Positions 8,600-34,277 are shown, numbered from the stretch's first letter. The stretch is 44,158 nt of DNA from Oscillatoria sp. PCC 10802 (GCF_000332335.1 NZ_KB235948.1:2804513-2848670), one strand, 5' to 3'. Notes: generated by a model not told the origin, from the letters alone. Made by a program: numbers and translations.

Positions 8600-8896
8600 T
8601 AGGGGCACCGGGCATGGGTCATTGGGCATCATCGCATGGGGAAGGGGGCATCATCGCATGGGGTTAATTATAAACTTCTCTCCTAAAACCTAAAACCTAA
8701 CCCCTATAGCGTTTTTGATATTCCTGAGGTACTGAAAAGCCCGGTTTCTTAAAGAAACCGGGTTTGGCGCACTCCCCCAACTGAAACCCGCTAAAATGCC
8801 TAAAATATACAGCATTTAATTTGCACTTTTCATTTCTATTCTACCGTTCCGGGGCAGGCACGAAAACCCTCCAATACTGGCAAAATAACGCAATCA

Positions 8897-9106
8897 GGAG
8901 GCTCTGCCTCCTTTCAAGGGAAAAGCAGGTTAAAAGCATAACAGCTTATAGCAGTAGCCACTTAGGTCCGTACATTTCGGCCTCTTTTGCACCCCCGCAC
9001 TCCTGCTCCTATTGTCCTAACCCATATTACTACTGGCATATAGACGTAGGCCAGCGTCTGGCTGCCCTGAAGGTCTAATGTTTTAACCTAAGTGCATACT
9101 GCTATA
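8897..9106. repeat. Cluster of small repeat elements (family 3 element 8897-8937; two MITE copies 8945-9106)
   Basis: ggaggctctgcctcctttcaagggaaaagcaggttaaaagc; tatagcagtagccacttaggtcc ... cctaagtgcatactgctata. Confidence 0.65.
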
Positions 9107-9201
9107 ACTGCTGGGCATGAGGCATGGCAATTTTTAGGGGCGGTTTCATCCAAATCTTTGCCCGAAACAGCCAAATATTAATAAACTCAAAACAGCCAAT
9201 C

Positions 9202-13338: not shown

Positions 13339-13396
13339 GCGGAAAAAGCAGAAAGTCGGGGCACCCACAACGGCATGGGTGCCAACTCAAACTTAA

Positions 13397-13555
13397 TATA
13401 GCAGCAGTCATATTGGGCGCGGAGATCGCTGGCCTAGGGATAAAAGGTGTAGGACAGGCGTTCGCTGCGATCCTACTGTCTTAACTTAAGTGAATACTGC
13501 TAGAATGAACCGCCAAGACGCCAAGAACGCCAAGAGGAAGTTTCTTGGCGTCCCT
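13397..13555. repeat. MITE copy (13397-13505) followed by family-4 hairpin repeat (CCGCCAAGACGCCAAGAACGCCAAG, 13508-13555)
   Basis: tatagcagcagtcatattggg...gtaggacaggcgttcgctgcgatcctac...cttaagtgaatactgctaga; the family-4 motif is also at 27440-27528 and 37127-37165. Confidence 0.65.
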
Positions 13556-14914: not shown

Positions 14915-15234
14915 TCTAGCAGTATTCACTTAGGTTAGGACAGTAGGTCGCAGGAGCGCCTGTCCTATAGCAGTATGCACTTAGGTTAGTACATGGGCAT
15001 TGGGGCAGTGGGCGATGGGGCATCACGCAAAAGCTGGTAGGGGCGGGTTTACTAACATCTGGTAAAACCCAGAGACATCTTGGGTGAACCCGCCCCTACT
15101 TACCCCATGCGCATGAGCCCGATGCGCATGAGCCCCATAAGCCATGTCATTAATGTCTTAACCAATATGACTGCTGCTATACGCCTTTTATCCCCAGGCC
15201 ACTGATGTCCTAAGCAATATGAATACTGCTATAT
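14915..15234. repeat. Nested MITE cluster (tatagcagtatgcacttaggttag ... ccaatatgactgctgctata with an inserted GC-hairpin element)
   Basis: Same architecture as the 20614-20797 copy, including the gcgcatgagccc x2 motif, plus an inserted ggtaggggcgggttt...aacccgcccctac hairpin also seen at 28795-28860. Confidence 0.7.
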
Positions 15235-17685: not shown

Positions 17686-17772
17686 TCAGTTGGATGAACG
17701 TTAGGCCCAGAAACCCGGTTTCTTAAAGAAACCGGGTTTCTCAGTACCTCACAAAGGATGAGAAACGCGATA
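17686..17772. repeat. MITE family 2 (TIR tagcggttctca...tgagaaacgcgata; core palindrome GAAACCCGGTTTCTTAAAGAAACCGGGTTTC)
   Basis: Near-identical copy at 40173-40268; partial cores at 8739, 17281, 41477, 42955, 43150. Confidence 0.7.
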
Positions 17773-17800
17773 AACCCTTTAACCCTGTTTTCGGTGCCAG

Positions 17801-19015
17801 ATGAAACTTAGCTTTTGCATTATTGTCAAAAACGAGGAAGCCACCCTGCCCAAGTGCCTGAGCAGTGTCAGAGAGGCGGTGGATGAAATGGTGGTGCTGG
17901 ACACCGGCTCGACGGACCGGACTCCAGAAATTGCGCGAGAATTCGGCGCGAAAGTTTATCACTTCCCGTGGGGCGGCGACTTCGCAGCCGCCCGCAATGA
18001 ATCTCTGAAGTATGTCACCGGCGACTGGGTTCTGGTGCTGGATGCGGATGAAGTGCTCAAACAAGAAAGTGTGCCGCAGATAAAGGAGGCGATGCTTAAC
18101 GAGCGCTATATCCTGATCAATCTCGTCCGCCACGAAGTTGGGGCGGCGCAATCTCCCTACTCGCTGGTGTCGCGGCTGTTCCGCAATCACCCAGAGATTT
18201 ATTTCTCGCACCCCTATCACGCAATGGTGGATGATAGTGTTGCCGAGCTGTTGCGCCAAAAGCCGAATCAGTGGCAGGTGGCTGACCTGTCGCCGGTGGC
18301 GATTGAACACTATGGCTACCAGCCAGGAACGATCGCAGCTCTTGATAAGTTTACCCGAGCGCGGCAGGCGATGGAAGCGTATCTGGCTGAACACCCCTCC
18401 GATCCCTACACCTCCAGCAAGCTGGGCGCTCTGTATGTGGCAGCGGGCGAGGTGGAAAGGGGCATCGCGCTGCTGGAACTGGGTCTGGCAGCGCTGCCAA
18501 AGCCGGACAGGTCTAGCCCTGCGGCAGCGCCGGTGCTCTACGAACTCCACTACCATTTAGGCATTGCCCACACTCGCCTCTCAAAGCTGTCTAAAGCGAA
18601 GTCGCACTATAAAGCGGCGATCGAGCAGCCTATTTTGCCGCAGCTGAAACTTGGCGCTTACAATAATTTGGGCAGCTTGCTGCTGGAAACCGGCGACTTG
18701 ACGGGCGCAATTTCTGCCTTCGGGACTGCTGTCCGCGCTGAGCCGAATTTTGCTCTCGGTCACTTCAATTTGGGGATTGCTCTCAAGCAGAAGGGGCGTC
18801 TGAAGGAAGCGATTGACTCCTACCGGCAAGCGATTGCACTAGACCCTGACTGTGCGGAGGCTTATCAAAATTTGGGGGTGGCGCTGCTGAAAGCCGGCAA
18901 TGTGCTGGAGAGTTTGGATACTTTTCGAGAGGCGATTTCGCTCTACGAGCAGCGCCAGTCGCCGGCAGGCGGTCATCTGCGCCGAAGTTTGAAGGAAATG
19001 GGTTTGAGCGTTTGA
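17801..19015 (+). CDS. Family 2 glycosyltransferase with C-terminal TPR repeats
   Basis: FCIIVKNEEATLPKCLSSV...VVLDTGSTDRT...DWVLVLDADEVL (GT2 DxD); C-terminal AYNNLGSLLLETGDLTGAI..., HFNLGIALKQKGRLKEAIDSYRQAIALDP TPRs. Confidence 0.85.
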   Translation: MKLSFCIIVKNEEATLPKCLSSVREAVDEMVVLDTGSTDRTPEIAREFGAKVYHFPWGGDFAAARNESLKYVTGDWVLVLDADEVLKQESVPQIKEAMLNERYILINLVRHEVGAAQSPYSLVSRLFRNHPEIYFSHPYHAMVDDSVAELLRQKPNQWQVADLSPVAIEHYGYQPGTIAALDKFTRARQAMEAYLAEHPSDPYTSSKLGALYVAAGEVERGIALLELGLAALPKPDRSSPAAAPVLYELHYHLGIAHTRLSKLSKAKSHYKAAIEQPILPQLKLGAYNNLGSLLLETGDLTGAISAFGTAVRAEPNFALGHFNLGIALKQKGRLKEAIDSYRQAIALDPDCAEAYQNLGVALLKAGNVLESLDTFREAISLYEQRQSPAGGHLRRSLKEMGLSV

Positions 19016-19159
19016 ATTCTCTCAGGGGAAGTGGGGTGCTTTTCCGGCGGCGGAACGCACCCCGCAAGTCCTGAGATCGGGCACAAGGGCATCACGCATG
19101 CATGGCATTGGTCACTGAATTCAGGTTAATCAACCCGACATGGTAGAGCAATAAGATGT

Positions 19160-19238
19160 TAGGCTTTTAACCTGCTTTTTCGTTGAAAGGAGGCAGAGCC
19201 TCCAGATTGCGTTCCCAGCCTGAGGCTGGGAACGCTAG
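19160..19238. repeat. Family-3 repeat element (aggcttttaacctgc...ggaggcagagcctcc...gcgttcccagcctgaggctgggaacgc)
   Basis: Copies at 8897, 26452, 27378, 42863-43087. Confidence 0.6.
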
Positions 19239-19640
19239 GATAAAAAATAATGTAAATTTAATGCAGCATAGCTTAGACAGTCAGTTGAGTGCAAGGTATC
19301 TTACTTGCTAGTAGGGACAGGGATTGGAGGGAACGCCTGTCCTAGGTCCGCGCCCTAAGAGCCCAGAGCTATATAAGGTAGCGGCTTTGCCTGTCTTGAC
19401 AGTGCAGTCACTGGAGATTATTGCCTGGAGTTGGCCAAGCCCAGCCAGTCCTTGTTCGGATCGCTGCGCGGCACAGGGTTGGTCGCAGGATGAGATCTCG
19501 ATCCAGAAGCGAGCTTGACCCAACATCCGAGTGAGGGAATGCGCGTTCCCCTTGACAGTTCAAGGGTGGGGAGGGCAATCTAAAATGTGCGATCTCCGGA
19601 TGTTTTTCCATCTGTGGTGTATCCTGGAAAGAAAAACTGC

Positions 19641-19669
19641 TTGACAAATAGATGTTTTGATGTTATAAT
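19641..19669 (+). promoter_or_regulatory. Perfect consensus sigma70-type promoter (TTGACA-17 bp-TATAAT with TG extended -10)
   Basis: cTTGACAaatagatgttttgaTGtTATAATgg; no convincing ORF in the 430 bp downstream. Confidence 0.55.
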
Positions 19670-20117
19670 GGCAAGGCTTACTTTATGGCAGGTGGCTTGC
19701 ATGCTAGCCGGTGCGGTCGCCGGCAACATTGTCAGTTGCGATTTTTCCGCATCTTCTCCCACACCCCCACACATCCAAGACTCACCGCCACCGGTGGGGC
19801 GGAATTTTCTACCGCAACACGAGCACACCGGCAAGTTGAGTGCCGGTGGGAGAGGGGCTGAGGTTTTCGCCACCGGCAAAGGCGGGCAGACTCTGGAAAA
19901 GAGCCGTGCCGGCACAGTCAAAATCTGGAATTTGGCCTCTCCGGAAGGGTGAGAGCCGGTTAGGGGATATGGTTTCCGGCAAGGCGGGGAAAGCTGTGGG
20001 TAGCTCACCTTTGCCCCTGCAAACCTAAAAATTGCCACAGCATACAAGACGAATGCAGCCGGATTTGATATCAGGGGGCTTCAGTCCAGAGAGGTTCCGG
20101 CTTGCCGGTGGCACAAG

Positions 20118-20446
20118 TCAGGAGATCGTCACGACTTTACCGCTGTCCAAGTCGTAACGGGCCCCAACGATTTTCAGCCTGCCCTGTTTGAGCAACTCAG
20201 CTAGAATGGGTTGAGAGGATTTTAATTGCTCCACAACCAGTTTGACGCGACATACCTTTTATTCCCGTCCATCAATGTTTGCAGGGCTTCGTCAGGGCTG
20301 ATGCCGGCGAGAGAATGATCCTTTGCGGCGACACGTTGATGCCCAACCAGCTGGGCTACCAGGGGAGCTCCCAGAGTTCCGAGACTGGCAGCCGCGAGCA
20401 TTTCCCGGCGGGAAAGCCGTCTCAAATGCTTTCTGTTGTCCATCAT
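20118..20446 (-). pseudogene. Beta-carbonic anhydrase paralog remnant (Tat-signal N-terminus + C-terminal 40 aa; catalytic core deleted)
   Basis: ORF 20222..20446 = MMDNRKHLRRLSRREMLAAASLGTLGA...SPDEALQTLMDGNKRYV (twin-arginine signal; matches GDEALQKLMAGNKRYV of the CA at 22596). In another frame 20118-20235 gives LVVEQLKSSQPILAELLKQGRLKIVGARYDLDSGKVVTIS*, matching the C-terminus of that CA. The CADSR/HERCG core is missing. Confidence 0.75.
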
Positions 20447-20613
20447 TTGCTACCTTGCGCAAATGTTCAGTTAATAGAAGTTTAAATCTACTAGCTGGGA
20501 GGGAGCTGATCCTTAAGGTATCCCTCTTCTGTCACGTTGGGGCAATTTGACGAATTTGCGCTATTTCAGGCAACGACAGATCCGGCTTTCACCCTTGTTT
20601 GAAAAAAGAGGGG

Positions 20614-20797
20614 TATAGCAGTATGCACTTAGGTTAGTACATGGGCATCACGCATGCATGGCATCACGCATGCATGGCATCACGCATGCATGGCATCACG
20701 CAAAAGCTGTGAGTCTTTCCCATGCGCATGAGCCCGATGCGCATGAGCCCCATAAGCCATGTCATTAATGTCTTAACCAATATGACTACTGCTATAG
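20614..20797. repeat. MITE with internal 16-bp tandem repeat (catcacgcatgcatgg x3.5)
   Basis: tatagcagtatgcacttaggttagtacatgggcat ... ccatgtcattaatgtcttaaccaatatgactactgctata. Confidence 0.7.
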
Positions 20798-21077
20798 TCT
20801 TTGCAATTCGCTTTTCTGGGCACCTTCGCCCCAGTGAGCGATCGCTTTATCCAATTTTGAATAAAAAACTCAGAAGGTTAAATTTTACTTAACAAACCTT
20901 TGTAAATGTTTACATTGGGCGGGAGCTTGGTGTTGGGGAGAGAAAGGGGGAGAGGTTCAATCTAAAATTGAACGGCTTCCCCGATCCAAATTTTGTACAT
21001 TATTTATATTGCACAATAAATTTGTTTTAGCGGGCGCGCAAGCACCCGCTCAATAAAAGATTGCCAGAGCTTTTATG

Positions 21078-22445
21078 TCACTCGTTCATATTCCTGTAAG
21101 TTGCCACTGCTGAAGGAGATATGCGGCTCAGATAGCGGAATATCCAATACTTAAAGATGGTATCCAAAATCACCGGAAAAGTGGCAATAAACAAAAAGTT
21201 AAAGTCCCGACTTTCTGGCAGTCCAAGATGTCTGGATATGCCTTCTAGAATCACTTCCCAGCCATGCGGTGAGTGGAACCCCACGAAAATATCTGTCAGA
21301 AGGATAATAATAAACGCTTTAGCACTGTCGCTGAGGCCGTAAATTATCTCGTCCATAAAAGATTTCAAAATAGCGATTTCTCGCTTACTGGTGAAAACTA
21401 CTGTGGCAAAAACAGCCGCCGATATCAGGTCAGCAAAGACATTTTTTATGGCGCTGTTACCTTCGGCTCTGTACTCTTCAGCAATTTCCTCAGCTTTGTG
21501 TTTGACCCGCTCCTCTAGCTCTTCTGTGGAAAGGTGAGGTGCCGCGCCTATTAAAATTTTAAATTTCAGCTGCTCTTCAAACCGCGCCAAATCTTCAAAA
21601 GCTTCTTTCTCGAAATCTTCGTTTATAAAGATTTCCGCTGAACTTTCTTCTCGGAAGTGGTCTACTACCGGCCCGACGAGGAAATTTTTTGAGAGCTGCT
21701 GCGTCAGGAGGGGAATTAGAACAAGCAAGAGGATAAACCTCAGCGAAATAACAGTCTTATTTTTGGAATTGCGGAAATTTTGAATAACTTCCTCTTCTGC
21801 TTTTGGGTCGAGGTCTTTCTTTAGCTTTTGAACGGTTCTCAAGATTGAGCGCGGTAAAAAGCCAGTTTTATCAGAAATTGATTCAGACATTTTTGCGAAT
21901 TTTTCGGCTGAATAAGGGACTGTACTGTTCTGTGAGAGGTAGCCTGATTGGGAAGGCTGCTCGCTCTGGCTGTAAGCTACCAATAAGGAGGGAGATGAGG
22001 GGGGATAAGTCACTGGCACTGGAGAAGTGTACTTAGCCAACACCCCATCAATAAACGTCAGCTTTTCTAAAGTAATAGAAGCTTTCTCTCTCAGCACGAT
22101 ATTAGTTGAATCCTGAAAGGACTCGGAAGAATCAATAGAAAATTCTTTCGGCTGGCCTAACTTGGTAGTGGTCAGAAGTGAGTGGCTAATCTTGAAAGCG
22201 GACAAGTTGAGTCTAGCAATATTGAGGTACTTGGTTAACTGACCCTCAAAATACTGAATGACACTCTCACTGTAGTGAGCTGTTTCTGCTGAAATCTTTT
22301 GGCCGTTAAAATGCTGATCCTCGATTGATTTGATGGTCAGGGCTGCATTGTAAGCTTCCTCCAGGGCTCTCTCTGGTGTTGCGGAAAACCACTTGCTGGC
22401 ATCGCGGAAGTATCCTTGGATGTTTGTGAACTGGGGTTTTTTCAT
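21078..22445 (-). CDS. pxcA: Proton extrusion protein PxcA/CotA (CemA family)
   Basis: 455 aa; C-terminal CemA domain ...FVGFHSPHGWEVILEGISRHLGLPESRDFNFLFIATFPVILDTIFKYWIFRYLSRISPSAVATYRNMNE. Confidence 0.85.
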   Translation of the reverse strand: MKKPQFTNIQGYFRDASKWFSATPERALEEAYNAALTIKSIEDQHFNGQKISAETAHYSESVIQYFEGQLTKYLNIARLNLSAFKISHSLLTTTKLGQPKEFSIDSSESFQDSTNIVLREKASITLEKLTFIDGVLAKYTSPVPVTYPPSSPSLLVAYSQSEQPSQSGYLSQNSTVPYSAEKFAKMSESISDKTGFLPRSILRTVQKLKKDLDPKAEEEVIQNFRNSKNKTVISLRFILLLVLIPLLTQQLSKNFLVGPVVDHFREESSAEIFINEDFEKEAFEDLARFEEQLKFKILIGAAPHLSTEELEERVKHKAEEIAEEYRAEGNSAIKNVFADLISAAVFATVVFTSKREIAILKSFMDEIIYGLSDSAKAFIIILLTDIFVGFHSPHGWEVILEGISRHLGLPESRDFNFLFIATFPVILDTIFKYWIFRYLSRISPSAVATYRNMNE

Positions 22446-22595
22446 GTCGCGGCTTGTCTTGGGGATATAAGGCGTTGCAAGGGAGCGAAAGGAGCGAAGC
22501 CAGAGGGCGAAGATATAAGAGAAGAAGAGAGAGTGTGAGGGGGAGGTGACAACCTGTTTACCCCTAGGATTTTCCCCTCTCTCTTAAGCGCTATC

Positions 22596-23306
22596 TCAAG
22601 GAACCAGCTCTACTTGGCCGGTGGCCAAGTCGTAGCGAGCGCCAACAATTTTCAGCTGGCCCATTTGAACCAAGTCAGCCAAGATGGGTTGGGAAGATTT
22701 CAATTGCTCAACAACCATTATAATATTCGCTTTGACCGCGTTGTCAAGGGCATCACCGGCTTTGCCTTTTGCCTTGTCTACGGCTGGTTTGATGGCATCG
22801 ACAAAACTGAAAATGTGGCCAGGGACTGGCTTGCCGTCTAGCGCCGCCTTCACCGCACCGCACCGTTCGTGCCCCAGCACCATAATTAAAGGCACACCTA
22901 ATACCGCTGTGGCATATTCGATGCTGCCGAGAATAGCGTCGTCCAGGATATTACCCGCCACCCGAATCACAAACAAGTCCCCCAGTCCTTGGTCGAAGAG
23001 AATTTCCGGCGGAACTCGCGAATCAGCACAGCCGAGCAGGATCGCAAAAGGATGCTGGCCTTTTGCAACCTCTGCGAGACGCATTGGCGTCTGGTCTGGA
23101 TAAGTGCGCTTTTGCTCAACATACCGTTTATTCCCTGCCATCAATTTTTGCAAAGCTTCGTCACCCGTGAGTGGGGCGGCTTCTTGTGGTATTGCTGTTT
23201 CAGGAATAACGATTTCGGCCATCGCTATAGCAACTAAACCACTGGCACCAGTTAGCGCCGGTAAATCGGCTTTATAGTTTACCTTTAACTGCTGTGTATT
23301 TGGCAT
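22596..23306 (-). CDS. Beta-class carbonic anhydrase
   Basis: CADSRVPPE and HERCGAV zinc-ligand motifs; 236 aa. Confidence 0.85.
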   Translation of the reverse strand: MPNTQQLKVNYKADLPALTGASGLVAIAMAEIVIPETAIPQEAAPLTGDEALQKLMAGNKRYVEQKRTYPDQTPMRLAEVAKGQHPFAILLGCADSRVPPEILFDQGLGDLFVIRVAGNILDDAILGSIEYATAVLGVPLIMVLGHERCGAVKAALDGKPVPGHIFSFVDAIKPAVDKAKGKAGDALDNAVKANIIMVVEQLKSSQPILADLVQMGQLKIVGARYDLATGQVELVP

Positions 23307-23525
23307 CGTTTGCTGCGAGTTAAAATTTAGCTGTCCCGGGAGGGATGTAATTTATTCTAGGATTTTTTCAGCTGAATCGAGCGGTATTCCGGGAAGTGGA
23401 GAGAAGGGGGGACGCTTTTACGAACCTGTCAAAACAGCCCCCGGGTTGGGCTGCACAGTGGCAGCCCGAGCGGGAGTTAAGTTGGCGGGATCTCAGCGGA
23501 GGTTCCCCCTAAGCGCGAGAGCCGG

Positions 23526-23822
23526 TTAATGGATGATTGACTGCACGTCAGAAAGCAGGCAAACACCGCCAAACTTCTTGAGTAAAGGTCTGATGATTTC
23601 CACAAATTCAGTGGCTTTTTCTTCCGTGCAAATACTCATCACATAACCATTGCTGAACGCGGCACCCATTTCTAAATCATTGGACACGACCCCTCGCTCG
23701 CCCTTACCTGTCACCTCCCGAATGATGGTATAGCCAGAAACGCCCACCTCTTCTAAGGTTGACAGCACTTTTTCCAATTCCAATGAGGTGATGATGATTT
23801 CTACCTTTTTCATCCGGTTCAC
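23526..23822 (-). CDS. sbtB: SbtB, PII-like regulator of the SbtA bicarbonate transporter
   Basis: 98 aa, MKKVEIIITSLELEKVLSTLEEVGVSGYTIIREVTGKGERG... PII-like fold; 4 bp downstream of sbtA. Confidence 0.8.
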   Translation of the reverse strand: MNRMKKVEIIITSLELEKVLSTLEEVGVSGYTIIREVTGKGERGVVSNDLEMGAAFSNGYVMSICTEEKATEFVEIIRPLLKKFGGVCLLSDVQSIIH

Positions 23823-23826
23823 AGTG

Positions 23827-24801
23827 TCAACCTCCCAGGGTTTTAATCATTTCCAAGTACACAGGAATCCCCACTATGATATTAAAGGGGAACGTGATGG
23901 CTAGAGCCATCGAAACGTAGAGACTTGGATTGGCTTCGGGAACGGTCATCCGCATGGCTGCGGGAACCGCTATGTAAGAGGCGCTTGCCGACAGTACGGC
24001 AAACAGAAGAGAATTCCCCTCGGAAAGCCCCATCAATTTTGCGAGCAGGATGCCGATAAGAGCATTCAATACGGGGATGCAGACAGCAAAGCTAATCAGG
24101 AAAGATCCTGTTTTCTTAAGGTCTCTTATCCTTCGGGCAGCAACCATTCCCATGTCCAGCAAAAAGAACGTCAGGACTCCGTAAAAAATTCCTTGGGTGA
24201 ATGGCTGCATCTTCTCCCAGCCTTTCCCCCCTGTCAGCGCTCCTACTAAAACGCTCCCAATCAAAAGAAAGACCGAGCCATTCAGGAAAGCTTCTTTGAA
24301 AACTTCTGACCAAGAAAATTCGGAATTTTCTTCTGTCTTTTTGCCAAAGATCCTGACCAGGAGAATGCCCACAATGATGGCCGGCGATTCCATGAGGGCG
24401 AGAGCGGCTACCATGTAGCCGTCAAAATGAATGCTGAGTTTGTCCAGGAAAGAACTGGCACTGATAAAGGTGACGGCGCTGATTGACCCATAGGTGGCTG
24501 CAATAGCGGCAGCATTATAAACGTCTAGTTTGATTTTGAGGATAAAAAACGTGTAGAGAGGGACAGCACAAGCCATGATGATGGCTGCTAGGAGAGTGAT
24601 GATAATTTCCAGACTGATTCCACTCTCGTCCAGTTCATAGCCTCCCTTGAACCCTATAGCCAGGAGAAGATACAGAGAGAAGAGTTTGGGCAAAGGCTGA
24701 GGGATTTCCAAGTCAGACTTAAGAAAAATCGCCATCATCCCCAGAAAGAAGAAAAGAACCGGCGGGTTCAGAAGGTTGAACAGAATAAGGCTTGAATCCA
24801 T
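23827..24801 (-). CDS. sbtA: SbtA sodium-dependent bicarbonate transporter (DUF897)
   Basis: MDSSLILFNLLNPPVLFFFLGMMAIFLKSDLEIPQPLPKLFSLYLLLAIGFKGGYEL... polytopic; immediately followed by sbtB. Confidence 0.85.
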   Translation of the reverse strand: MDSSLILFNLLNPPVLFFFLGMMAIFLKSDLEIPQPLPKLFSLYLLLAIGFKGGYELDESGISLEIIITLLAAIIMACAVPLYTFFILKIKLDVYNAAAIAATYGSISAVTFISASSFLDKLSIHFDGYMVAALALMESPAIIVGILLVRIFGKKTEENSEFSWSEVFKEAFLNGSVFLLIGSVLVGALTGGKGWEKMQPFTQGIFYGVLTFFLLDMGMVAARRIRDLKKTGSFLISFAVCIPVLNALIGILLAKLMGLSEGNSLLFAVLSASASYIAVPAAMRMTVPEANPSLYVSMALAITFPFNIIVGIPVYLEMIKTLGG

Positions 24802-25141
24802 CTAAGCTCCTAAAATGTGTAGCAATCAACACGGAAAAATATTGGCCAAACGAACCGACTAACTCAGCCCTGACTCAGTTATGACAAATTTATAGGAGTT
24901 AGGCGTGTCGGAGGTATGTCAGTAATATGAATATGCTGTGACACCGGCACTGGCCCAGATCGCTTTCAATCTGGGCCTTCCCCACCCTCACCCGTTGCGG
25001 TGTTCGAGTCTGTGCCGGCGCACCCTTGCGGGCAGGGCTGGCACCGGCGCTCTCATATCCGCCTGTCCCTGAGCCCCACTCACCCCTGCGGTGGGGCGCT
25101 GCCGGTGGGCCTGAACGGAAGCGCCTCTGGGTAAAGAAAAA

Positions 25142-26127
25142 TTACGAATTGCCGGCTGCCGGTCGAGCCGGTGGGGTGAGGGGGAGGCGAATCGTGGAAG
25201 TGGCCCCCTTGCGAGCACTGCTGCTAGCGGCGATCTTCCCGCCGTGCGCTTCCACAATGGGCTGCGCAATGGCCAGCCCCAAGCCGGTGCCGCTGCCTTT
25301 GCGCGAGCGATCTGCCGTGTAAAACTGCTCAAAAAGGTGGGGGAAATCGGCTTCGCTGATGCCGGCTCCCCAATCTTGGATTTGCACAGCCACAAAGCCA
25401 CCTCCCACACTCCCGGAGACGAAAACCTCAGAATCCGGCGCAGAATATTTAATCGCGTTGTCCAGCACATTCAGGAAAGCTTGCAACAGCCGTTCTGGAT
25501 CGCCCTTGAACTCAACGTCGGGAACGTCCAGCTCGAAGCCAGGACTGGCGGCTCGCATGCGGGACTCCATCGCCAGCACGCAGCGATTGAGCAACTGTTG
25601 CAGGCTGACCGGCTGCTCTTGCAGCGGCAGGACACCGGCTTCCAGCCGCCCCAGTTCCAGCAAGTCCTGAATCAGCCGCGACAGGCGGGCTGTTTCCTCC
25701 AGCGCCGTCTGGATGAAGCGGTTCCGCAGCTCTTGCTCCTCACCGGCACCGCTGGAGAGCGCCTCCAGCGTCACTGACCCGTTTCTCATATAAATAAGCC
25801 AATCCTGTGACACATTCGCCAGGAACGACCGCCGCTAAAGCTCCAGCGCCGCCAGGCGCACCTCACTAGAATGAGACGAGGGGTCAAATCGGCGAAATCA
25901 TCGTTTTGAGGGATATTCAGCTTGTCACCCAAATGACCTGCCTCCAGCCGGATGGCAAAGTTGCGCATCGCCTGGATGGGCGTGGCGATGCGGCGGGAGA
26001 ACCACAGGCTCACGCAGGCGCAGAGCGAGAACGTCACCAGCACCGTTCCCAGCACCGTCCAAATCACGGCTTGAAACTGGCGCTGGAACTGGGCGAGGGC
26101 TGACAGCAGCAGGCGATTTGCTAACAT
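25142..26127 (-). pseudogene. Histidine kinase (TM-HAMP-HisKA-HATPase) disrupted by frameshift(s); H-box position reads Q
   Basis: ORF 25786..26127 gives TM + HAMP-like segment, then loses frame. ORF 25142..25813 (GTG start) gives FLANVSQDWLIY... (SQ where SHELRTPL is expected) plus an intact HATPase_c (NAIKYS, DWGAGI, GTGLGLAIAQ). Confidence 0.6.
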
Positions 26128-27069
26128 CTTTCAAATTCTGCTATACTTTGCTCAAGACAGTCGCCTAAACCTGAGAACCATCCGGCAAGTTGCTGCTCTG
26201 AAAAAAGCTCGCTCGCAATGCCTCTTCCTCATCAACCAGTAAGACGTGTTGCATGATGGGTTTACCTTGCCTGCAGTCAGCTACTGTACTTTTAATAGGC
26301 ACCTCCTCTCGATCTCATCCCCCCTCTGGGAGATTTTTGCCTGCCTGTCAGGGAAGGTGACATATTTATTTCATCTCCTATTAATTAGGATTTAATTATT
26401 TCGGCCTCCTTGGGAATGCGATTGAGAGCGGGGCGGATCGGTTTTAAGCTCTTAGGCTTTTAACCTGCTTTTACGTTTAAACGAGGCAGAGCCTACAAAT
26501 TTCGTTTTCAGCTTTATATTGAAACGAAAAATAGAGATACATAATGCAAATAAAATGCGCTATATCTTGCTGTCCGGCAGGCAGCCGGTGCCTGCCGGAT
26601 TGGTGCGGCAGCTGTCGGGAGCGCTGCGGCAGTGTTTCACCAAACACGCCGGTGTGCGGCGATCTCCCCAAAACCCCAGAGGCTTCCCGCAGCCCTATGC
26701 CGGCAGCCGCAGCCCCCCTCGCGCCCCACCGCCTCCATCTACAGGCTGCAGTTGAGAAATTCTCCTACTTTCCATGAAAAAGTGTAAATTTTATGGGAGC
26801 CGGCTAATCTTAATTATTTCTTTATGATTGGCGCGAACCCCTTGTGATATGCGGCGGTCAAGCCGGGGGTGATGTGCCGGGGATCGCCCTTCCTGCGGGC
26901 GATCCCATTGACAGTCGGCACAAATGCTGAGATACTGTAATATATAAGTGAGTCTCGGCTCGCCAAAGGGATACGTTTGGGTGCAGATTGTTAAAAACTG
27001 TAAAGTGGGAGACTTTCTGTCTCATTTTGTAGAGGCTTCGAGAAACAGGTTGAACTGAGAGGTTATAAC

Positions 27070-27249
27070 ATGCACGCAAAACAACAAATCCGCTGCCCCA
27101 ACTGCGGCAGTCATGCTGAGCGCGACTATCTGGCCAGCAGTGAGCTGACTCGGACTCAATGCCCCAGCTGCGATTACTTGATGGTTGCCTGCTCCCGCAC
27201 CGGCAGAGTCAGAGAGGCCTACGCTCCGGGGATCTACGCCCGCCGCTAA
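27070..27249 (+). CDS. Small zinc-ribbon protein (59 aa), not in ORF track
   Basis: MHAKQQIRCPNCGSHAERDYLASSELTRTQCPSCDYLMVACSRTGRVREAYAPGIYARR; two CxxC pairs; GAGAGG 8 nt upstream of ATG. Confidence 0.45.
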   Translation: MHAKQQIRCPNCGSHAERDYLASSELTRTQCPSCDYLMVACSRTGRVREAYAPGIYARR

Positions 27250-27539
27250 GGAACGCCTGCGCAAAACCCCCCTCTGCCACAAGAAACCGTCACAGCCCTT
27301 CCGGATCGGGCTTGGGGAGTGGGGGCGGGGCGGGGCGCGGGTTTGTCAAGCTCCTTCCCTGCGCCACAAATATGCTGTTAGGCTTTTAATGCGCTGATTG
27401 GAGAAAGGAGGCAGTCGCTTCGGAATGGCGCACACCGCCACATCTTTCTTCTTCATTCTTGGCGTCCTTGGCATCTTGGCGGTTCATAATTTTAATAAAC
27501 CGCCAAGACGCAGAGAGCGCCAAGGAAAGAAAAAGAATT

Positions 27540-28752: not shown

Positions 28753-29008
28753 ATATAGCAGTAGGCACTTAGGGAAAGGACTTGGGGTTTAACATGATGT
28801 AGGGGCGGGAACACCGACAAAGAGTGCCACACAGGTACAACACCGATAAACCCGCCCCTAACCTCTGATATAGCAGCCGGCAATTGGGCCATAGCGTGTC
28901 CTATGTCCTACCCAATATGACTGCTGCTATACTGCTCTATAGACGTATGTACGGCGTCCGCCGAGCCTGAAGGTTTAATGTCCTAATCTAAGTGGCTAGT
29001 GCTATACT
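28753..29008. repeat. MITE cluster (three nested/adjacent elements)
   Basis: atatagcagtaggcacttagg ... ccaatatgactgctgctata; tatagacgtatgtacggcgtccgccgagcctgaaggtttaatgtcctaatctaagtggctagtgctata. Confidence 0.7.
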
Positions 29009-29217: not shown

Positions 29218-30579
29218 TTAACTCGCCTTCAGCGCTGCGTGAGCTATCCGCACGATGGGAATCTCAATAACAAACTCTGCCCCCTGTCCGAGTTGCGAGC
29301 AACACTTCAGTTGCCCGCCGTGCTTTTGCACAATAATATCATAGCTGATAGACAGTCCCAAGCCGGTGCCTTCGCCCACCGGCTTAGTAGTGAAGAAGGG
29401 GTCAAATAGCTGTCCCATAACATCAATATCTATCCCGGGCCCATTATCTTTGATACTGATTCTCACCCAATCCCGGTTCAGAACTTGGGTGCGAATGGTA
29501 ATGGTACTGGGGCTGTTTTTAATCTCGTCTGAGGAGCGTGTCTTATCGCGCTCGTTCAGGGCGTCAATTGCATTGCTGAGGAGGTTCATAAAGACCTGAT
29601 TCAAAGAGCCGGCATAGCATTCGACTGCCGGCAAATCCCCGTATTCTTTGACGATTTGAATAGCGGGACTCTCAGGCTTTGCCTTGAGCCGATTGTGCAA
29701 AATCACTAGAGTGCTGTCGATGCCCTCATGAATGCTGACCGGCTTCATTTCAGCTTGGTCAACCCGGGAGAATGTGCGCAACGTCATCACAATCTGGCGG
29801 ATGCGCTCAGCTCCCACTTTCATAGAGCACAGCATTTTGGGGAGATCCTCTCTAAGAAAATCAAGCTCAGTCTCCTCAATTAAAGCTAGGATTTTAGGGT
29901 CAGGATTGACATAGCACTGCTGGTAGAGGTCGATTAAATCCAGGAGAGCCTGAGTGTAGTCCCCAACATAGCTGAGGTTGCCGTAGATGAAGTTGACGGG
30001 GTTGTTAATTTCGTGGGCGACACCGGCAACCAGCTGCCCTAAGCTCGACATTTTCTCGTTCTGAATCAGCTGAGCTTGAGTGCGCTGCAAATCTTGCAAA
30101 ACTCGTTGCAGCTGAATCGCTTTTTCGCGCTCTCGCGCTTCCGATTGCCGCAACTCCTCCTCTTGTTCTTGCCGCAAGCGCAGGTTTTCTTTCAGCTGTC
30201 GCACGCAGTTCAGGGTTTTGCTGATAGTAATTTCTAAATCCTGAAAATCTATGGGCTTGGTGAGAAAGTCAAATGCCCCGCAGTTCATTGCCTTTCTGAT
30301 ATTTGCCATGTCGCTATAGGCGGAAACTACCACTGTTTTAATCAGCGGCGCTATCTCATTCAGTTTAGCCAGCAAAGTCAAACCATCCATAACCGGCATA
30401 TTCAGGTCGGTCAGCACCATGTCGAGGTCGGGGTTATCTCGCACCTTTTCCAGCGCTTCTGCGCCATTGCGGGCAAAAACCAGCTCCAATTCGCCGGTGC
30501 GAATCTTTTTTCTATATTTTTGGCAAATCAGAAGTTCTAAATCCGGCTCGTCATCCACAAAGAGTATTTTAGCTGCCAC
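29218..30579 (-). CDS. Hybrid response regulator / histidine kinase (REC-coiled coil-HisKA-HATPase_c)
   Basis: N-terminal receiver (ILFVDDEPD...[12 protein letters not shown]...KP), H-box [13 protein letters not shown], HATPase KDNGPGID...[14 protein letters not shown]. Confidence 0.85.
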
Positions 30580-30613
30580 AGCACTTATCCTTTTTTGGAT
30601 TTTCTTTAATAAT

Positions 30614-30777
30614 TATAGCAGCAGTCATATGGGTTAAGACAATAGGAGCTTCGGGAGCTCTGGAGCAAGGGAGGCCGGAATGTACCTTCCCTAAATGCCT
30701 ACTGCTATATAGACGTAGGGGGGGCGTCCCGCCCCCCTGAAGGTCTAATGTCCTAATCTAAGTGGCTACTGCTATAT
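30614..30777. repeat. MITE pair inserted between the hybrid kinase and the CheY-like gene
   Basis: tatagcagcagtcatatgggttaag ... tatagacgtagggggggcgtcccgcccccctgaaggtctaatgtcctaatctaagtggctactgctata. Confidence 0.7.
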
Positions 30778-30882
30778 ATCATTTGCTGGCTATTCCAACC
30801 CGTAAAAACGATTCTTTTGGAAAAAGTTTCGCTCAACTGATCGGGACGATCCGGGGGGCAGATAGGTGGGGATTATAGGGGC

Positions 30883-31254
30883 CTAAAACAAGCTGAATAT
30901 TTTTTGTTTCAGTCCCAAAAAGTTAACTGGCTTTGTAATATAGTCATCTGCCCCCAAAGTCATTGCAGTTTTGTAATTTTGAGGGTCTTCGTAAGCGGTA
31001 ATCATAAAGACTTTTAAGCTGGCCAAATCTTTTTTAATGATTCTGAGAAGTTCTAGCCCATTCATTCCCGGCATGTTAATGTCGGAGAGAATCAGCACAG
31101 CGGACGCTTCTCCCCGCTCGTGCAGGTAGTCTAGCGCCGCCTCCGCCGATAAGAAGAAAATAAATTCTATTTGACCGGCTTTGATTTCCTTTCTAAATCT
31201 TTGCTTGAACAGGAGCTGGATATCTTCCTCGTCGTCAACCACTATGACTTTCAT
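30883..31254 (-). CDS. Single-domain response regulator (CheY-like receiver)
   Basis: 123 aa, MKVIVVDDEEDIQ...LILSDINMPGMNGLELL...ITKP. Confidence 0.85.
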   Translation of the reverse strand: MKVIVVDDEEDIQLLFKQRFRKEIKAGQIEFIFFLSAEAALDYLHERGEASAVLILSDINMPGMNGLELLRIIKKDLASLKVFMITAYEDPQNYKTAMTLGADDYITKPVNFLGLKQKIFSLF

Positions 31255-31316
31255 TTATTTTACCATTCCCTTGAACTTGACAGTATTTACCCCGCACAAC
31301 CCATGTTCAGTTTTAA

Positions 31317-31348
31317 AATCCCAAATCCCAAATCCCAAATCCCAAATT
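31317..31348. repeat. STRR heptamer (CCCAAAT)x4
   Basis: aatcccaaatcccaaatcccaaatcccaaat between the sensor kinase stop and the CheY start. Confidence 0.7.
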
Positions 31349-31352
31349 GATA

Positions 31353-34277
31353 TCATTCATGGGCTTGCTTTTTTGGTAAGATGATAATAAACTCTGCATA
31401 GCTGCCTGCTTCCGTTTCCACCTGGAGTTCTCCTCTGTGCTGCTGCACCACAATATCGTGACTGATAGACAGACCCAAACCAGTCCCTTCTCCCGCTGGC
31501 TTTGTAGTAAAAAAGGGGGTGAAAAGTTTATCGCGCACCTCTGGCGTCATACCGGAGCCGTTATCGCGAATGCGGATTTCAACGCGCTCGCCCAGATTTT
31601 TAGTTCGCACGTTCAGGAGCGGAGAAAATTCACTGCCCATTTCTTGTTTCTTTTGATGGGCTGCATAGCAAGCGTTGTTGATAATGTTCAGGAAAACTCG
31701 GCCCATGTCTTGCGGCACGACTTCTACAGAGCCAATAGACTCGTCACAGCCGGTTTCTATGGTAATATTAAAGGAAGCATCCTTGGCCCGCATCCCGTGA
31801 TAGGCGAGATTGACATACTCGGCCAATACACTGTTGATATCCGTCGCCTCCCAGTGACCGCTTTTTCCGCGAGAGTGCAGCAGCATACTGCTAACGATAC
31901 GGTCAGCTCTTTGACCGTGATGGTTGATTTTTTGCAGATTTTGTCTCAGGTCGCTTAACAGGTCGGCAATCGACTCAATGGTTTCGGGATCGAGCCTGCC
32001 GGCTTGATTTTCAATTTCTTCAAATAGCTCTTCCGCCAATTCAGCGGAAAGCTCAGAGAAGTTGTTAACAAAGTTTAAGGGGTTCCTGATTTCGTGGGCG
32101 ATGCCGGCTGTCAAACTTCCCAGAGAAGCAAGCTTTTCTTGCACGACAATTTGTTTTTGCATGGCTCGCAGATTCTCTTCGACCCGCCGGCGCTCGTTTA
32201 TTTCCACCTGCAATTGCTCAACAGTCTGGCTGAGTTCAGAGGTGCGCTCCTCAACTTTTATTTCTAGCTGCTCATTAGCTTTTTGCAGCGCCTCCCGGGC
32301 TCGCACGCGCTCGGTCATGTCGCGCAGAATCACCACATATTCTTGCAGGTCCCGATTGGTTTGCGATGCGTTTTGGGAGAATCGGTCTGAGATGGCAACT
32401 TCCAGGATAAGGGGATTTGGCCCGTGCGGGTTGAGGGTTTGCTCGCACCGGCTCGGCCACTCATCGGGATGATTCCCCAATCCGGGCAGCAGCTGATTGA
32501 GGTGACGTCCGGCCAGCTGGCCGGCGCTCACCCCAAACAGGCGCTCAGCTGCAGGGTTAGCCTGACGAATCATGCCATTTTCATCGAGCACGGCAATCGC
32601 GTCCAGGGCAATGACAAACAGCTGTTCCGCCGCCTCTCGCGCTTCGTCCATCGAGACAACCTGAGGCAAGCTCGTCCAGCAGGCAATCGCCACTCCGACA
32701 AATGCCACACCCTGAATCAGCACCAGCAATAAATTAGAGTTGGCCCTGGGGACGGCATTTAATTTCAGGCCCAAAACCCAGCCGGCGGCAACGGCGCTGC
32801 AGACCAGCAAGATCAGGACTGTCACCTGAAGGGCCACAAAATCTTCTATCGGTTTCTTGGGCCTTTGCCGGTAGCGCTCAATCCACCAGGCGGCGTGAAA
32901 GGGCGCAAATTGAAGGCGGCGCATCGCAGCGTCCACAGCCAAAACAGCGAGGGGAAACAGGAACCCGATGAGAAAGTTGTTCCAGCCCCAAGCACAGCCC
33001 CCAACGAACAGCACAACCACCTCTACCAAAAAGAAGCCCAGCGACGGCCAGGGCCAGCGCACCTCTGGCCTGGCCCGGCCCAGCCACAGTCCCCAATGGA
33101 GGGCCATGAAAGACACCAGCCAGCAAGTATTGGTGATTGCCACGATTTGCGAGACATTTCCCCAAATCAGACAGATGACATTGAGGCACAAGGTAAACAC
33201 CAAGGCCGGTCCGAGTACGCCCCGTCGGGACACAGCGGCGAACACGGATGACAGGTGTCCGTCAAGGCTGAGTTGGTACAAAATGCGGGGGCAATTGGAA
33301 ACTGCGGTGGCGCAACTGAGAAGGAAACTCGCAGAGAGCAGGAATGTGACCATTCCGGAAGCAGACGCCCCCCAGAACGGCTTAGAGGCAGCTAGCAGAT
33401 TTAAGAACGTGTCCTCCCCCAGTCGGGGCTCGGTAGCGAGGCGCATCAGCACCCAGGACCCGCCCAGAAACACCGGCGGCATCAGACAAGCGGCAACCGT
33501 CAGAAAGCGCAGCGTTTCAGCCGGGCGTTTGCTGTCGCCGACAAACGAGGAAGCGGTTTCGCCGGCGTTGGTAACGTAGGTAACAAGGAAAAACCACTTG
33601 GCCCACTCCACAAAGGTGAGGGGCGATGAGCGGCTCGGAAAAAAGCCCGGGCTCGATGGGGAGAAAGCCAGCCAGCCCAGACCTTGCAGGCAAAACAGCA
33701 GCAGCAGTCCGAACGCCGGAATCACGAAACATAAATGCAGGATGCTCAAAGCGCGGGTGCCGCTAAACGCCACAGTAAAGATAACGGCCACAAAGCCGAT
33801 TTTCATCAGGGTATCGGGACAGGCCACACCCAAAGGCTCCAGGTTCCTCTCAATCAGCTTGGTCAGGATGATGGCGGCCACCGGCACATTCGATATCCAG
33901 CTAATGTAATATCCCAGCGCCGCATAGCGGGCAAGCCCTGGATAGCTCTTCAGCAACCGGGCGGCATAGTTGGGCGTTCCACCGGCCATTTCGGGCCATT
34001 GTTCGCCCAAGCGTTTCACTTGCAGGTTTAGCAAGATGCCGGCGATCGCCCCAGGCAACCAGACCAACAGGGCACTGGGCCCAGTAGCGGCGTGGATCGC
34101 TGGAGCGATACTCAGCCATGTGACGTGACCTGTTAGACCAAAGCCCCAGGTTTCCAAGGGTGTCAGGGTTCGCTGCAGGCGCATCCGCGACCTCTCCCTG
34201 AGATTCCCGCCAGGGATTGGTTGAGACGGTTCTGAGTGGGAGCCGGAAGCCTGCTCCTGTTGGGTTTCTAGCACCAT
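31353..34277 (-). CDS. Sensor histidine kinase with large N-terminal polytopic transporter-like (APC/amino-acid-permease-like) domain, PAS, HisKA, HATPase_c
   Basis: 974 aa; ~530 aa of multiple TM segments (GTPNYAARLL...YYISW), PAS (FVIALDAIAVLDENGMIRQANPAAERLFG), H-box GIAHEIRNPLNFV, HATPase DNGSGMTPEV...[14 protein letters not shown]. Confidence 0.8.
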   Translation of the reverse strand: MVLETQQEQASGSHSEPSQPIPGGNLRERSRMRLQRTLTPLETWGFGLTGHVTWLSIAPAIHAATGPSALLVWLPGAIAGILLNLQVKRLGEQWPEMAGGTPNYAARLLKSYPGLARYAALGYYISWISNVPVAAIILTKLIERNLEPLGVACPDTLMKIGFVAVIFTVAFSGTRALSILHLCFVIPAFGLLLLFCLQGLGWLAFSPSSPGFFPSRSSPLTFVEWAKWFFLVTYVTNAGETASSFVGDSKRPAETLRFLTVAACLMPPVFLGGSWVLMRLATEPRLGEDTFLNLLAASKPFWGASASGMVTFLLSASFLLSCATAVSNCPRILYQLSLDGHLSSVFAAVSRRGVLGPALVFTLCLNVICLIWGNVSQIVAITNTCWLVSFMALHWGLWLGRARPEVRWPWPSLGFFLVEVVVLFVGGCAWGWNNFLIGFLFPLAVLAVDAAMRRLQFAPFHAAWWIERYRQRPKKPIEDFVALQVTVLILLVCSAVAAGWVLGLKLNAVPRANSNLLLVLIQGVAFVGVAIACWTSLPQVVSMDEAREAAEQLFVIALDAIAVLDENGMIRQANPAAERLFGVSAGQLAGRHLNQLLPGLGNHPDEWPSRCEQTLNPHGPNPLILEVAISDRFSQNASQTNRDLQEYVVILRDMTERVRAREALQKANEQLEIKVEERTSELSQTVEQLQVEINERRRVEENLRAMQKQIVVQEKLASLGSLTAGIAHEIRNPLNFVNNFSELSAELAEELFEEIENQAGRLDPETIESIADLLSDLRQNLQKINHHGQRADRIVSSMLLHSRGKSGHWEATDINSVLAEYVNLAYHGMRAKDASFNITIETGCDESIGSVEVVPQDMGRVFLNIINNACYAAHQKKQEMGSEFSPLLNVRTKNLGERVEIRIRDNGSGMTPEVRDKLFTPFFTTKPAGEGTGLGLSISHDIVVQQHRGELQVETEAGSYAEFIIILPKKQAHE

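Follow-up and report, generated by a model that had tools for sequence, protein, structure and literature searches.

Why should a gene for a carbonic anhydrase (CA) lie directly behind the genes for a bicarbonate importer and its putative regulator, and why does a second, broken CA gene stand next to it? The locus that raises this question lies in a 44,158-nucleotide stretch of cyanobacterial DNA (the window), whose source genome is treated throughout as Kamptonema formosum; an NCBI protein from this species matches the intact CA at 100% identity. A sequence-only reading of the window had placed a transporter, a PII-like protein, a beta-CA, PxcA and a CA remnant on the minus strand between positions 20118 and 24801, and all five are there. 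It had also found a CA coupled to a bicarbonate importer odd unless the enzyme lies outside the cytoplasm, a premise that the comparison with other genomes contradicts.

Genes of the cluster and their families

The genes of the cluster are of known kinds. An SbtA-like (SbtA2-type) permease of the Sbt_1 family (23827-24801, minus strand, 324 aa; PF05982, E = 5.5e-127, profile positions 1-307 of 308) is followed after 4 bp by an SbtB-like PII-like protein (23526-23822, minus, 98 aa, or 95 aa if the start is the ATG 9 nt downstream; PF00543, E = 1.4e-16). Beyond a spacer of 219 bp (23307-23525, minus; 89% conserved in three genomes) lies the intact beta-CA, here called CA' (22596-23306, minus, 236 aa; PF00484, E = 6.5e-43), and after another 150 bp the CemA-family proton-extrusion protein PxcA (21078-22445, minus, 455 aa), assigned by NF002703 (615.8 bits against a cut-off of 526) and PF03040 (E = 1.3e-105, profile positions 1-229 of 229). 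A gap of 631 bp then leads to the CA pseudogene (20118-20446, minus; located by tblastn and translations), which is convergent with a plus-strand glycosyltransferase-2/TPR (GT2/TPR) gene found with Pfam (17801-19015) that serves as synteny anchor. The cluster had been described as tightly spaced, which suits the transporter and PII-like genes but not the two wider gaps further on. Its GC content does lie below that of its neighbors, as had been claimed: GC3 is 47-55% in the four cluster genes, with pxcA lowest at 47%, versus 60-75% in the flanking genes, and the same contrast between cluster and flanks is found in Oscillatoria princeps.

The four genes are co-directional, the three spacers between them contain no terminator-like sites on the minus strand, and promoter-like matches in these spacers are at chance level. 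The 150-bp spacer is conserved, like the 219-bp spacer, and both could hold promoters. An alignment of three genomes reveals a conserved hairpin in the longer one (23449-23466), but its folding is no better than that of shuffled sequences (z = -1.14) and covariation among three sequences carries no information. In the conserved region upstream of the SbtA-like gene (24802-25000, minus), a candidate promoter/operator, the proximal ~190 bp are nearly the same in K. formosum, O. princeps and an Oscillatoria metagenome-assembled genome (MAG L011). No significant promoter was predicted in the region upstream of the SbtA-like gene, and the NdhR-type site (ATAG-N8-CTAT) that the sequence-only reading had proposed to look for is not present there.

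At the level of families the names sbtA and sbtB are justified, but these are not the canonical CCM genes. The permease was compared with canonical SbtA (SbtA1, Slr1512-type) in length (~370 aa), in the long cytoplasmic loop between two 5-TM repeats and in closeness to Slr1512. It has the Sbt_1 fold, but it is shorter, Slr1512 residues ~174-214 (~40 residues, the long central loop) have no counterpart in it, and a phmmer comparison with Synechocystis SbtA (7cye) gives a distant match (E = 3.6e-26) in two stretches only; it was therefore rejected as a canonical SbtA. Copies in Nostocales, Oscillatoriales, Pseudanabaena and other cyanobacteria are 70-80% identical to it, and those of the two closest relatives 90-94%. 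Members of the "SbtA-like/SbtA2" family are described as Sbt_1 proteins only ~25% identical to SbtA1 and co-located with a PII-like gene (PMC13187645, PMC11890772), and the K. formosum pair, a permease distant from SbtA1 followed after 4 nt by its PII-like gene, fits that description. SbtA2 is an HCO3- transporter inhibited by SbtB2 (PMC13187645), and the SbtA-like protein of Nostoc is 24% identical to SbtA (PMC11890772). The SbtA2/SbtB2 system of marine alpha-cyanobacteria and the SbtA-like proteins of Nostoc and Microcystis share with our pair a short Sbt_1 permease distant from SbtA1 and a PII-like partner; unlike the K. formosum locus, they are described in PMC13187645 and PMC11890772 with no mention of a linked CA or PxcA.

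Among solved structures, the best relative of the PII-like protein is CPII (5d4n; E = 2.7e-7, full length), and SbtB structures match less well (E = 0.0013-0.011; Slr1513 chains, E = 0.0085-0.011). The CGPxGC motif that defines the redox R-loop of SbtB (PMC13249358) was not found at its C terminus, which ends ...LLSDVQSIIH. With the PII fold and the adjacency to the transporter in place, but this R-loop and closeness to Slr1513 lacking, a Slr1513-type SbtB was rejected. CPII, the carboxysome-associated PII-like protein of chemoautotrophs, is likewise encoded beside an inorganic-carbon uptake system. The transporter it accompanies is of a type different from Sbt_1.

The intact carbonic anhydrase and its decayed neighbor

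The motifs GCADSRV and GHERCGAV of CA' (CADSR, HxxC) align to the same motifs of Mycobacterium tuberculosis Rv3588c. Over the catalytic domain CA' is 46% identical to EcaB of Synechocystis sp. PCC 6803 (Slr0051, Q55136; E = 4e-52), versus 25-29% identity to CcaA-like CAs, and this EcaB-type sequence rules it out as a carboxysomal CcaA. By sequence, both CAs of the locus are EcaB-type. EcaB itself is an "external" beta-CA with a twin-arginine leader and a role linked to NDH-1_3/4 at the thylakoid (PMC11360081). Such a leader is common to EcaB, the pseudogene and nearly all relatives. CA' differs from EcaB in that the RR motif is lost and in that its gene sits inside a transporter/PxcA cluster.

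Codons 1-47 of CA' (23166-23306, minus) form a relic of a Tat signal, in which the SRR position reads YKA. In the three CA' orthologs SRRx is replaced by YKAD, SKAD and YQAD, so that RR is gone from all three, whereas every other Sbt-linked EcaB-type CA inspected (9 loci from genomes and at least 17 from metagenomes) has kept it. The hydrophobic N terminus without RR that had been reported for the intact CA is borne out in both respects. Judged by dN/dS, the catalytic core is under strong purifying selection (0.125) and the leader evolves neutrally overall (1.12). A lipobox Cys is reported for Slr0051, but none was found after the h-region of either leader, that of CA' or that of the pseudogene. 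One relative (P0012) carries a lipobox, LAAGC.

The pseudogene consists of an N-terminal part with the RR leader and the first helix (20248-20446, minus), a 74-aa ORF carrying MMDNRKHLRRLSRREMLAAASLGTLGA with the twin-arginine signal LSRREMLAAASLG, and a C-terminal part comprising the last 43 codons in another frame (20118-20247, minus). In alignment it measures 329 bp versus 720 bp for the intact syntenic gene of O. princeps. A single 391-bp deletion, with its junction at ~20248|20247 (TATGTCG|CGTCAAACTGG), takes out all zinc ligands and the whole catalytic core and shifts the frame. The neighbor is what the sequence-only reading had suggested, a decayed EcaB-like CA with a Tat signal and no catalytic core, and the deletion is now mapped against the O. 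princeps gene. Some 80 bp upstream of the dead gene lies a K. formosum-specific insertion of 276 bp (20519-20794), absent from the O. princeps spacer, and in it lies a MITE-like element (20614-20797) that carries 16-nt tandem repeats; the element has a near-identical twin at 14966-15182 and related copies across the window.

In O. princeps the order is RlmN..Sbt_1-PII-CA(236 aa, no RR)-CemA-CA(239 aa, RR)..GT2/TPR. Both CAs are intact at this same locus, and the K. formosum copy is therefore a recent pseudogene. The related Oscillatoria MAG, represented by a low-coverage contig, has undergone the opposite loss, with CA' truncated. The GT2/TPR gene adjoins the Tat-CA in O. princeps, in this MAG and in Microcoleus vaginatus, where the intact Tat-CA occupies the position of the pseudogene, and it is found near Sbt_1 clusters in several other cyanobacteria.

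The two CA genes had been explained by duplication then divergence, or by replacement. Two EcaB-type paralogs, one of them lost, are indeed seen, but a local duplication is not: in a bootstrapped neighbor-joining tree of 189 columns, CA' groups with Tat CAs of another type (P0003/P0007) in 92% of replicates and with the adjacent lineage in 4%, and its GC3 is like that of the low-GC block and unlike that of the neighboring CA gene. These results do not support CA' as a local duplicate of that gene. More probably CA' descends from a Tat-exported enzyme and was recruited when the low-GC3 block came in.

Recurrence of the gene order in cyanobacteria

Among loci with at least 3.5 kb downstream in 54 cyanobacterial species representatives, the Sbt and PII-like pair is conserved in 50, and the order Sbt_1–PII–beta-CA–PxcA is found in 16. 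Sbt-(PII)-CcaA-like CA-CemA accounts for 14 of the 54 loci and Sbt-PII-EcaB-type-CemA for 2, the latter confined to the Kamptonema/Oscillatoria princeps clade; other loci have Sbt-PII with a CcaA-like CA (5), Sbt-PII with an RR-bearing EcaB-type CA (7), or Sbt-PII without CA or PxcA (23). Because the same gene order recurs in so many genomes, the arrangement is not due to chance.

The clusters of Nostocales and Microseira (e.g., L014, L019, L039 and L044) agree with that of K. formosum in their four families, gene order and orientation, and their spacers are short, but their CA is a tail-less CcaA paralog without N-terminal extension, whereas K. formosum has an EcaB-type CA with a relic leader and then a second EcaB-type gene. 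Inspection of N termini showed that the CcaA-like CAs of such clusters begin at the catalytic domain and carry no signal; four that were compared are ~224 aa long, share 59-67% identity with CcaA and have no counterpart of its C-terminal tail. The PxcA-linked CAs inspected elsewhere are signal-less, and together with the loss of RR from all three CA' orthologs they speak against an enzyme that has to be extracytoplasmic. Conversely, a Tat-exported CA fills the same slot at 7 loci in genomes and at least 17 in metagenomes; the slot therefore does not strictly require an intracellular enzyme.

A candidate carbon-uptake module and its rival explanations

Probably, though with considerable room for doubt, the locus is one lineage's own form of a four-gene module that recurs in cyanobacteria (SbtA2-type transporter, PII-like protein, beta-CA and PxcA), a form in which CA' has been recruited and is now cytoplasmic. 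PxcA is regarded as a proton-extrusion component that supports inorganic carbon (Ci) uptake (PMC11360081). From knowledge of each family separately, we propose that HCO3- would be carried across the plasma membrane by the SbtA-like protein under adenyl-nucleotide control through the PII-like protein, that CA', located in the cytoplasm as the CcaA-like enzyme of other genomes may be, would interconvert CO2 and HCO3- beside the transporter, and that H+ from CO2 hydration would be removed by PxcA-dependent proton export. The net effect would be to trap or recapture inorganic carbon and to buffer cytoplasmic pH. The mechanism is physiologically awkward, because free cytoplasmic CA, as Price and Badger reportedly argued in 1989, should dissipate the HCO3- pool. 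Animal bicarbonate transport metabolons, in which CA is bound to an anion exchanger and works with a proton exporter, offer a functional analogy only: HCO3- transport, CA activity and H+ export are combined there too, but the proteins are unrelated. The metabolon concept is cited in the SbtA2 paper (PMC13187645).

A cytoplasmic CA' is favored over a Sec-exported one, but the K. formosum leader GLVAIAMAEIVI gives some reason to consider the latter. Its best 12-residue Kyte-Doolittle mean (2.43) exceeds that of any Tat leader in the family (1.5-2.0 in the relatives), its n-region is net positive and an A-M-A|E cleavage-like site is present; Sec export or membrane anchoring is therefore possible. 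CA' might then have taken over the periplasmic role, leaving the Tat neighbor dispensable and free to decay, and an external CA would bring CO2 and HCO3- into equilibrium at the cell surface, next to the transporter and PxcA. This is a serious possibility, if one that we think more likely wrong than right. It agrees with an E at the end of the h-region where the Tat paralogs have a basic K, with classical Sec signals (e.g., MKRAIFALIGLIVLVSFVANTMA) in homologs 64-66% identical to CA', with the frequency of Sbt-PII-Tat-CA trios, and with K. formosum being the only one of the three genomes in which the Tat copy is gone and the CA' leader is still hydrophobic. Against it, an Asp immediately precedes the h-region, strong hydrophobicity extends over just 7-8 residues, the PxcA-linked CAs elsewhere have no signal, and the neutrally evolving leader is clearly non-functional in the orthologs of O. 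princeps and the Oscillatoria MAG (VDQLSDE and VDRLSDE), where D, Q/R, S and D interrupt the h-region (Kyte-Doolittle ~1.0).

The low GC3 of the block within a higher-GC genome, the reciprocal pseudogenization in sister genomes and the 23 loci with Sbt-PII alone could also be read as signs that the genes are not functionally coupled at all, i.e., that a laterally acquired, compositionally foreign block owes its adjacency to shared history and that two redundant CAs were lost at random. We consider this improbable. The same order occurs with two unrelated CA subtypes across distant cyanobacterial orders, a sign that adjacency is selected; purifying selection on the CA' core is strong; and a distant Halomicronema MAG (L076) has its Sbt-PII pair between RlmN and GT2/TPR as well, so that the site must be old. 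That the pseudogene is an assembly artefact, the Tat-CA being intact in the organism, is harder still to credit. Independent short-read assemblies break in the repeat-rich spacer and therefore none covers the deletion junction, but no collapsible repeats flank that junction (a few bases of microhomology only), the contig on which the protein is recorded measures 6.9 Mb, and the remaining parts of the pseudogene are otherwise well preserved in perfect synteny.

A bolder extension of the cytoplasmic reading, which we offer tentatively and would not expect to hold in full, is that filamentous cyanobacteria have a Ci-acquisition and pH-balancing unit not described before, made up of an SbtA2-type transporter, a PII-like protein, a beta-CA that is intracellular but not carboxysomal, and PxcA. 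Proton export by PxcA would pull the hydration of cytoplasmic CO2, and the need for an intracellular CA would have been strong enough for a periplasmic EcaB-type enzyme to be recruited and stripped of its Tat signal in the Kamptonema clade. For two carbon-uptake proteins that are still poorly understood, the recurring four-gene order and the lost export tag provide a lead that can be tested.

The cluster and its neighbourhood

In agreement with the sequence-only reading, five features lie on the minus strand: an Sbt_1 permease (23827-24801; 324 aa; PF05982, E 5.5e-127), a PII-like protein (23526-23822; 98 aa; PF00543, E 1.4e-16), a beta-carbonic anhydrase (CA), here CA' (22596-23306; 236 aa; PF00484, E 6.5e-43), the CemA-family protein PxcA (21078-22445; 455 aa; NF002703, 615.8 bits versus a cut-off of 526) and the 329-bp remnant of a second CA (20118-20446), a pseudogene. 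Every part of the cluster belongs to a known family. The gaps measure 4, 219, 150 and 631 bp, and therefore the tight spacing previously described holds for the first gene pair only. The lower GC content claimed for the unit is evident at third codon positions, with GC3 of 47-55% in the four intact genes versus 60-75% in flanking genes. This contrast is equally seen in O. princeps; in low-GC genomes the cluster genes are not distinct from their surroundings in composition.

The labels sbtA and sbtB do not apply in their canonical sense. The match of the permease to Slr1512 reaches only E 3.6e-26, in two stretches with ~40 central-loop residues missing. The best solved relative of the PII-like protein, which has no C-terminal CGPxGC loop, is CPII (E 2.7e-7); SbtB proteins match more weakly (E 0.0013-0.011). 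Judged by sequence, the pair fits the SbtA-like and SbtA2-SbtB2 families. An 'SbtA-like' protein has been noted in Nostoc (PMC11890772); SbtA2-type transporters were first characterised as late as 2026, and HCO3- transport in E. coli has been shown for the SbtA2/SbtB2 family (PMC13187645). The window permease shares 70-80% identity with copies in Nostocales, Oscillatoriales, Pseudanabaena and other cyanobacteria; in its two closest relatives, identity rises to 90-94%.

Two noncoding stretches are conserved: the ~190 bp preceding the transporter gene, and the spacer of 219 bp that separates the PII-like and CA genes. A structured RNA in this spacer was considered and rejected (z = -1.14, covariation uninformative), and an Rfam search of 18500-27500, admitting E values as high as 1, returned only chance-level matches to known RNA elements. 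Counts of terminators and promoters were at shuffle level, with no terminator-like sites in the three spacers between cluster genes. The NdhR site sought upstream of the transporter gene did not materialize: no ATAG-N8-CTAT occurs there, and window-wide counts equal chance.

A histidine-kinase remnant (25142-26127, minus strand; GC 58-61%) is split into ORFs of 113 and 223 aa and lacks the phospho-His box, because its HisKA match spans profile positions 23-66 only. Gene calls for O. princeps show no histidine kinase between RlmN and Sbt_1, and similarity to that genome begins only about the 3' end of the remnant. Two more low-GC patches lie at 41771-42808 (plus strand) and about 30000-31500; the former is a 345-aa ORF that may be foreign DNA, since its GC3 is 34.7% in a window of 53.6% mean GC. 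A GC-rich 39-nt tandem array (43938-44158; ~4.4 copies, 92% matches) continues past the window end; it has an in-frame period and probably encodes a repetitive protein. An 88-nt dispersed repeat (17702-17789, 40197-40284; also 8725-8765) contains the perfect palindrome AGAAACCCGGTTTCTTAAAGAAACCGGGTTTCT and sits just upstream of the GT2/TPR gene (17801-19015).

Leader, selection and origin of CA'

CA' is 46% identical to Synechocystis EcaB (E 4e-52), which upholds the suggestion of an EcaB-like enzyme. It keeps CADSR and HxxC by comparison with Rv3588c, and matches at 100% identity an NCBI protein, encoded on a 6.9-Mb contig, of Kamptonema formosum, the name used here for the same organism. All relatives in the alignment carry the leader S/x-R-R-x-[FLM]-[LIM], with its twin-arginine motif (RR). 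At the RR position the three CA' orthologs instead have YKAD (K. formosum), SKAD (O. princeps) and YQAD (the uncultured Oscillatoria sp. MAG L011). The hydrophobic, RR-less N-terminus noted earlier is thus real in K. formosum, where the h-region reads VAIAMAE, the best 12-mer (Kyte-Doolittle 2.43) exceeds true Tat leaders, and an A-M-A|E site follows. The main rival to an intracellular enzyme is that K. formosum CA' is Sec-exported or membrane-anchored. The corresponding h-regions in O. princeps and L011 are VDQLSDE and VDRLSDE, with Kyte-Doolittle values of ~1.0. Five flanking genes, compared pairwise by identity, point to these two being sisters, in which case the hydrophobic state may be ancestral. 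Between K. formosum and O. princeps, dN/dS is 0.125 in the CA' core (93.7% identity) versus 1.12 in the leader (62%), and therefore the enzyme, and not its leader, has been kept on at least one branch.

Export by Sec has precedents among relatives. In metagenome contigs L098, L099, L101, L106 and L107, classical Sec signals (e.g., MKRAIFALIGLIVLVSFVANTMA) replace Tat leaders, and hence the EcaB-type subfamily uses both export routes. These Sec-signal enzymes are 59-66% identical to CA', some at 64-66%. The metagenome scan found no further RR-less CA' ortholog closer than 66%.

Duplication followed by divergence had been put forward for the two adjacent CAs. In a bootstrap neighbor-joining (NJ) analysis of the 189-column CA core, CA' grouped with the Tat-bearing P0003 and P0007 in 92% of replicates and with the adjacent Tat-CA lineage in 4%. 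The GC3 of CA' is 51%, like the low-GC3 block, versus 60-62% for the neighboring Tat-CA. On the grounds of NJ and GC3, in-situ tandem duplication of the neighbor was rejected. P0003 and P0007 lie on contigs of 46-48% GC with no Sbt cluster close by. We infer from phylogeny and composition that CA' was probably recruited or imported together with the low-GC3 block, not duplicated locally.

Decay of the neighboring Tat-CA

The pseudogene was correctly recognized: a 74-aa ORF (20222-20446) retains LSRREMLAAASLG plus the first CA helix, and the last 43 codons of the CA come after it in a different frame. This ORF is not among recorded proteins. The same locus in O. princeps reads RlmN..Sbt_1-PII-CA-CemA-TatCA..GT2/TPR, with an intact Tat-CA of 239 aa. 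Alignment of the two reveals one 391-bp deletion in K. formosum (329 vs 720 bp); its junction, TATGTCG|CGTCAAACTGG, falls near 20248|20247, and the rest of the remnant shows no second lesion. Contigs with the CA or GT2/TPR gene end short of the junction. Because the intact Tat-CA of Microcoleus vaginatus stands alone adjoining the GT2/TPR gene, this spot is suggested to be its resident position.

A further difference from O. princeps is a 276-bp insertion (20519-20794) in K. formosum, ~80 bp upstream of the dead Tat-CA start, that may have severed the gene from its promoter. It holds a MITE-like element (20614-20797) with a near-identical twin at 14966-15182. The family numbers at least 10 copies in the window, every one intergenic (also 2390-2553, 8947-9108, 13379-13506, 14915-15234, 28754-29007, 30614-30777 and 43745-43851), with inverted ends TATAGCAGTAG.CACTTAGGTTAGGAC ... 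GTCCTAA.CTAAGTG..TACTGCTATA. Perfect 16-nt (GGCATCACGCATGCAT x3.7) and 15-nt tandem repeats occur in the insertion at 20644-20702 and 20722-20750, also at 15103-15138 and about 19105-19135; their CATGCATGCGTGATGCC motif is found again near 19120.

Recurrence and proposed function

Our survey took in 54 cyanobacterial loci from species representatives, each extending 3.5 kb or more beyond Sbt_1 on its downstream side. Sbt-PII only was found in 23, Sbt-(PII)-CcaA-like CA-CemA in 14, Sbt-PII-EcaB-type CA with RR in 7, Sbt-PII-CcaA-like CA in 5, Sbt alone in 2 and Sbt-PII-CemA in 1; Sbt-PII-EcaB-type CA-CemA occurred in 2, confined to the Kamptonema clade. Metagenomes contain at least 17 Sbt-PII-EcaB(RR) trios. 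Wherever their N-termini were inspected, the CcaA-like CAs start at the catalytic domain, and four compared (~224 aa, 59-67% identity to CcaA) lack the CcaA tail. Survey and N-termini together indicate that PxcA linkage accompanies a signal-less CA, the Kamptonema clade being the sole EcaB-type case. In L011 (CAZJNL010000002.1, 11495-11890) the cluster CA is truncated, with ~500 bp deleted and ~87 aa left, and the Tat-CA is intact; this low-coverage MAG contig and K. formosum thus appear to be a case of reciprocal CA loss. Relatives of the GT2/TPR gene stand beside or near Sbt_1-PII in distant cyanobacteria (L015, L076, L036, L041, L044). The RlmN/Sbt_1-PII/GT2-TPR neighborhood is old, since Halomicronema (L076) has the order RlmN-Sbt_1-PII-GT2/TPR.

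We propose that the SbtA-like protein would move HCO3- under control of the PII-like protein, that the CA would interconvert CO2 and HCO3- to equilibrium, most likely intracellularly, and that the protons of CO2 hydration would be cleared via PxcA-dependent H+ export. The chief objection to this mechanism is that free cytosolic CA should dissipate the HCO3- pool, as Price and Badger reportedly argued in 1989.

According to the literature read, neither EcaB nor PxcA yet has a clear physiological role (PMC11360081, PMC9865033). In the literature searched we found no publication linking pxcA with an SbtA-like/CA cluster; an Acaryochloris sbtA study proved unrelated. The recurring SbtA2-type/PII-like/beta-CA/PxcA order gives a concrete hypothesis of joint action by four proteins, and the three sister genomes, with both CAs, the RR-less only or the Tat enzyme only, offer a natural experiment. 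A cytoplasmic location of the RR-less CA would run counter to the principle that free cytosolic CA is avoided in cyanobacteria; Sec export, by contrast, would provide a documented case of a zinc enzyme switching from Tat to Sec. Either outcome would be relevant to transferring bicarbonate transporters into chloroplasts, for which 'additional components may be required' (PMC13187645).
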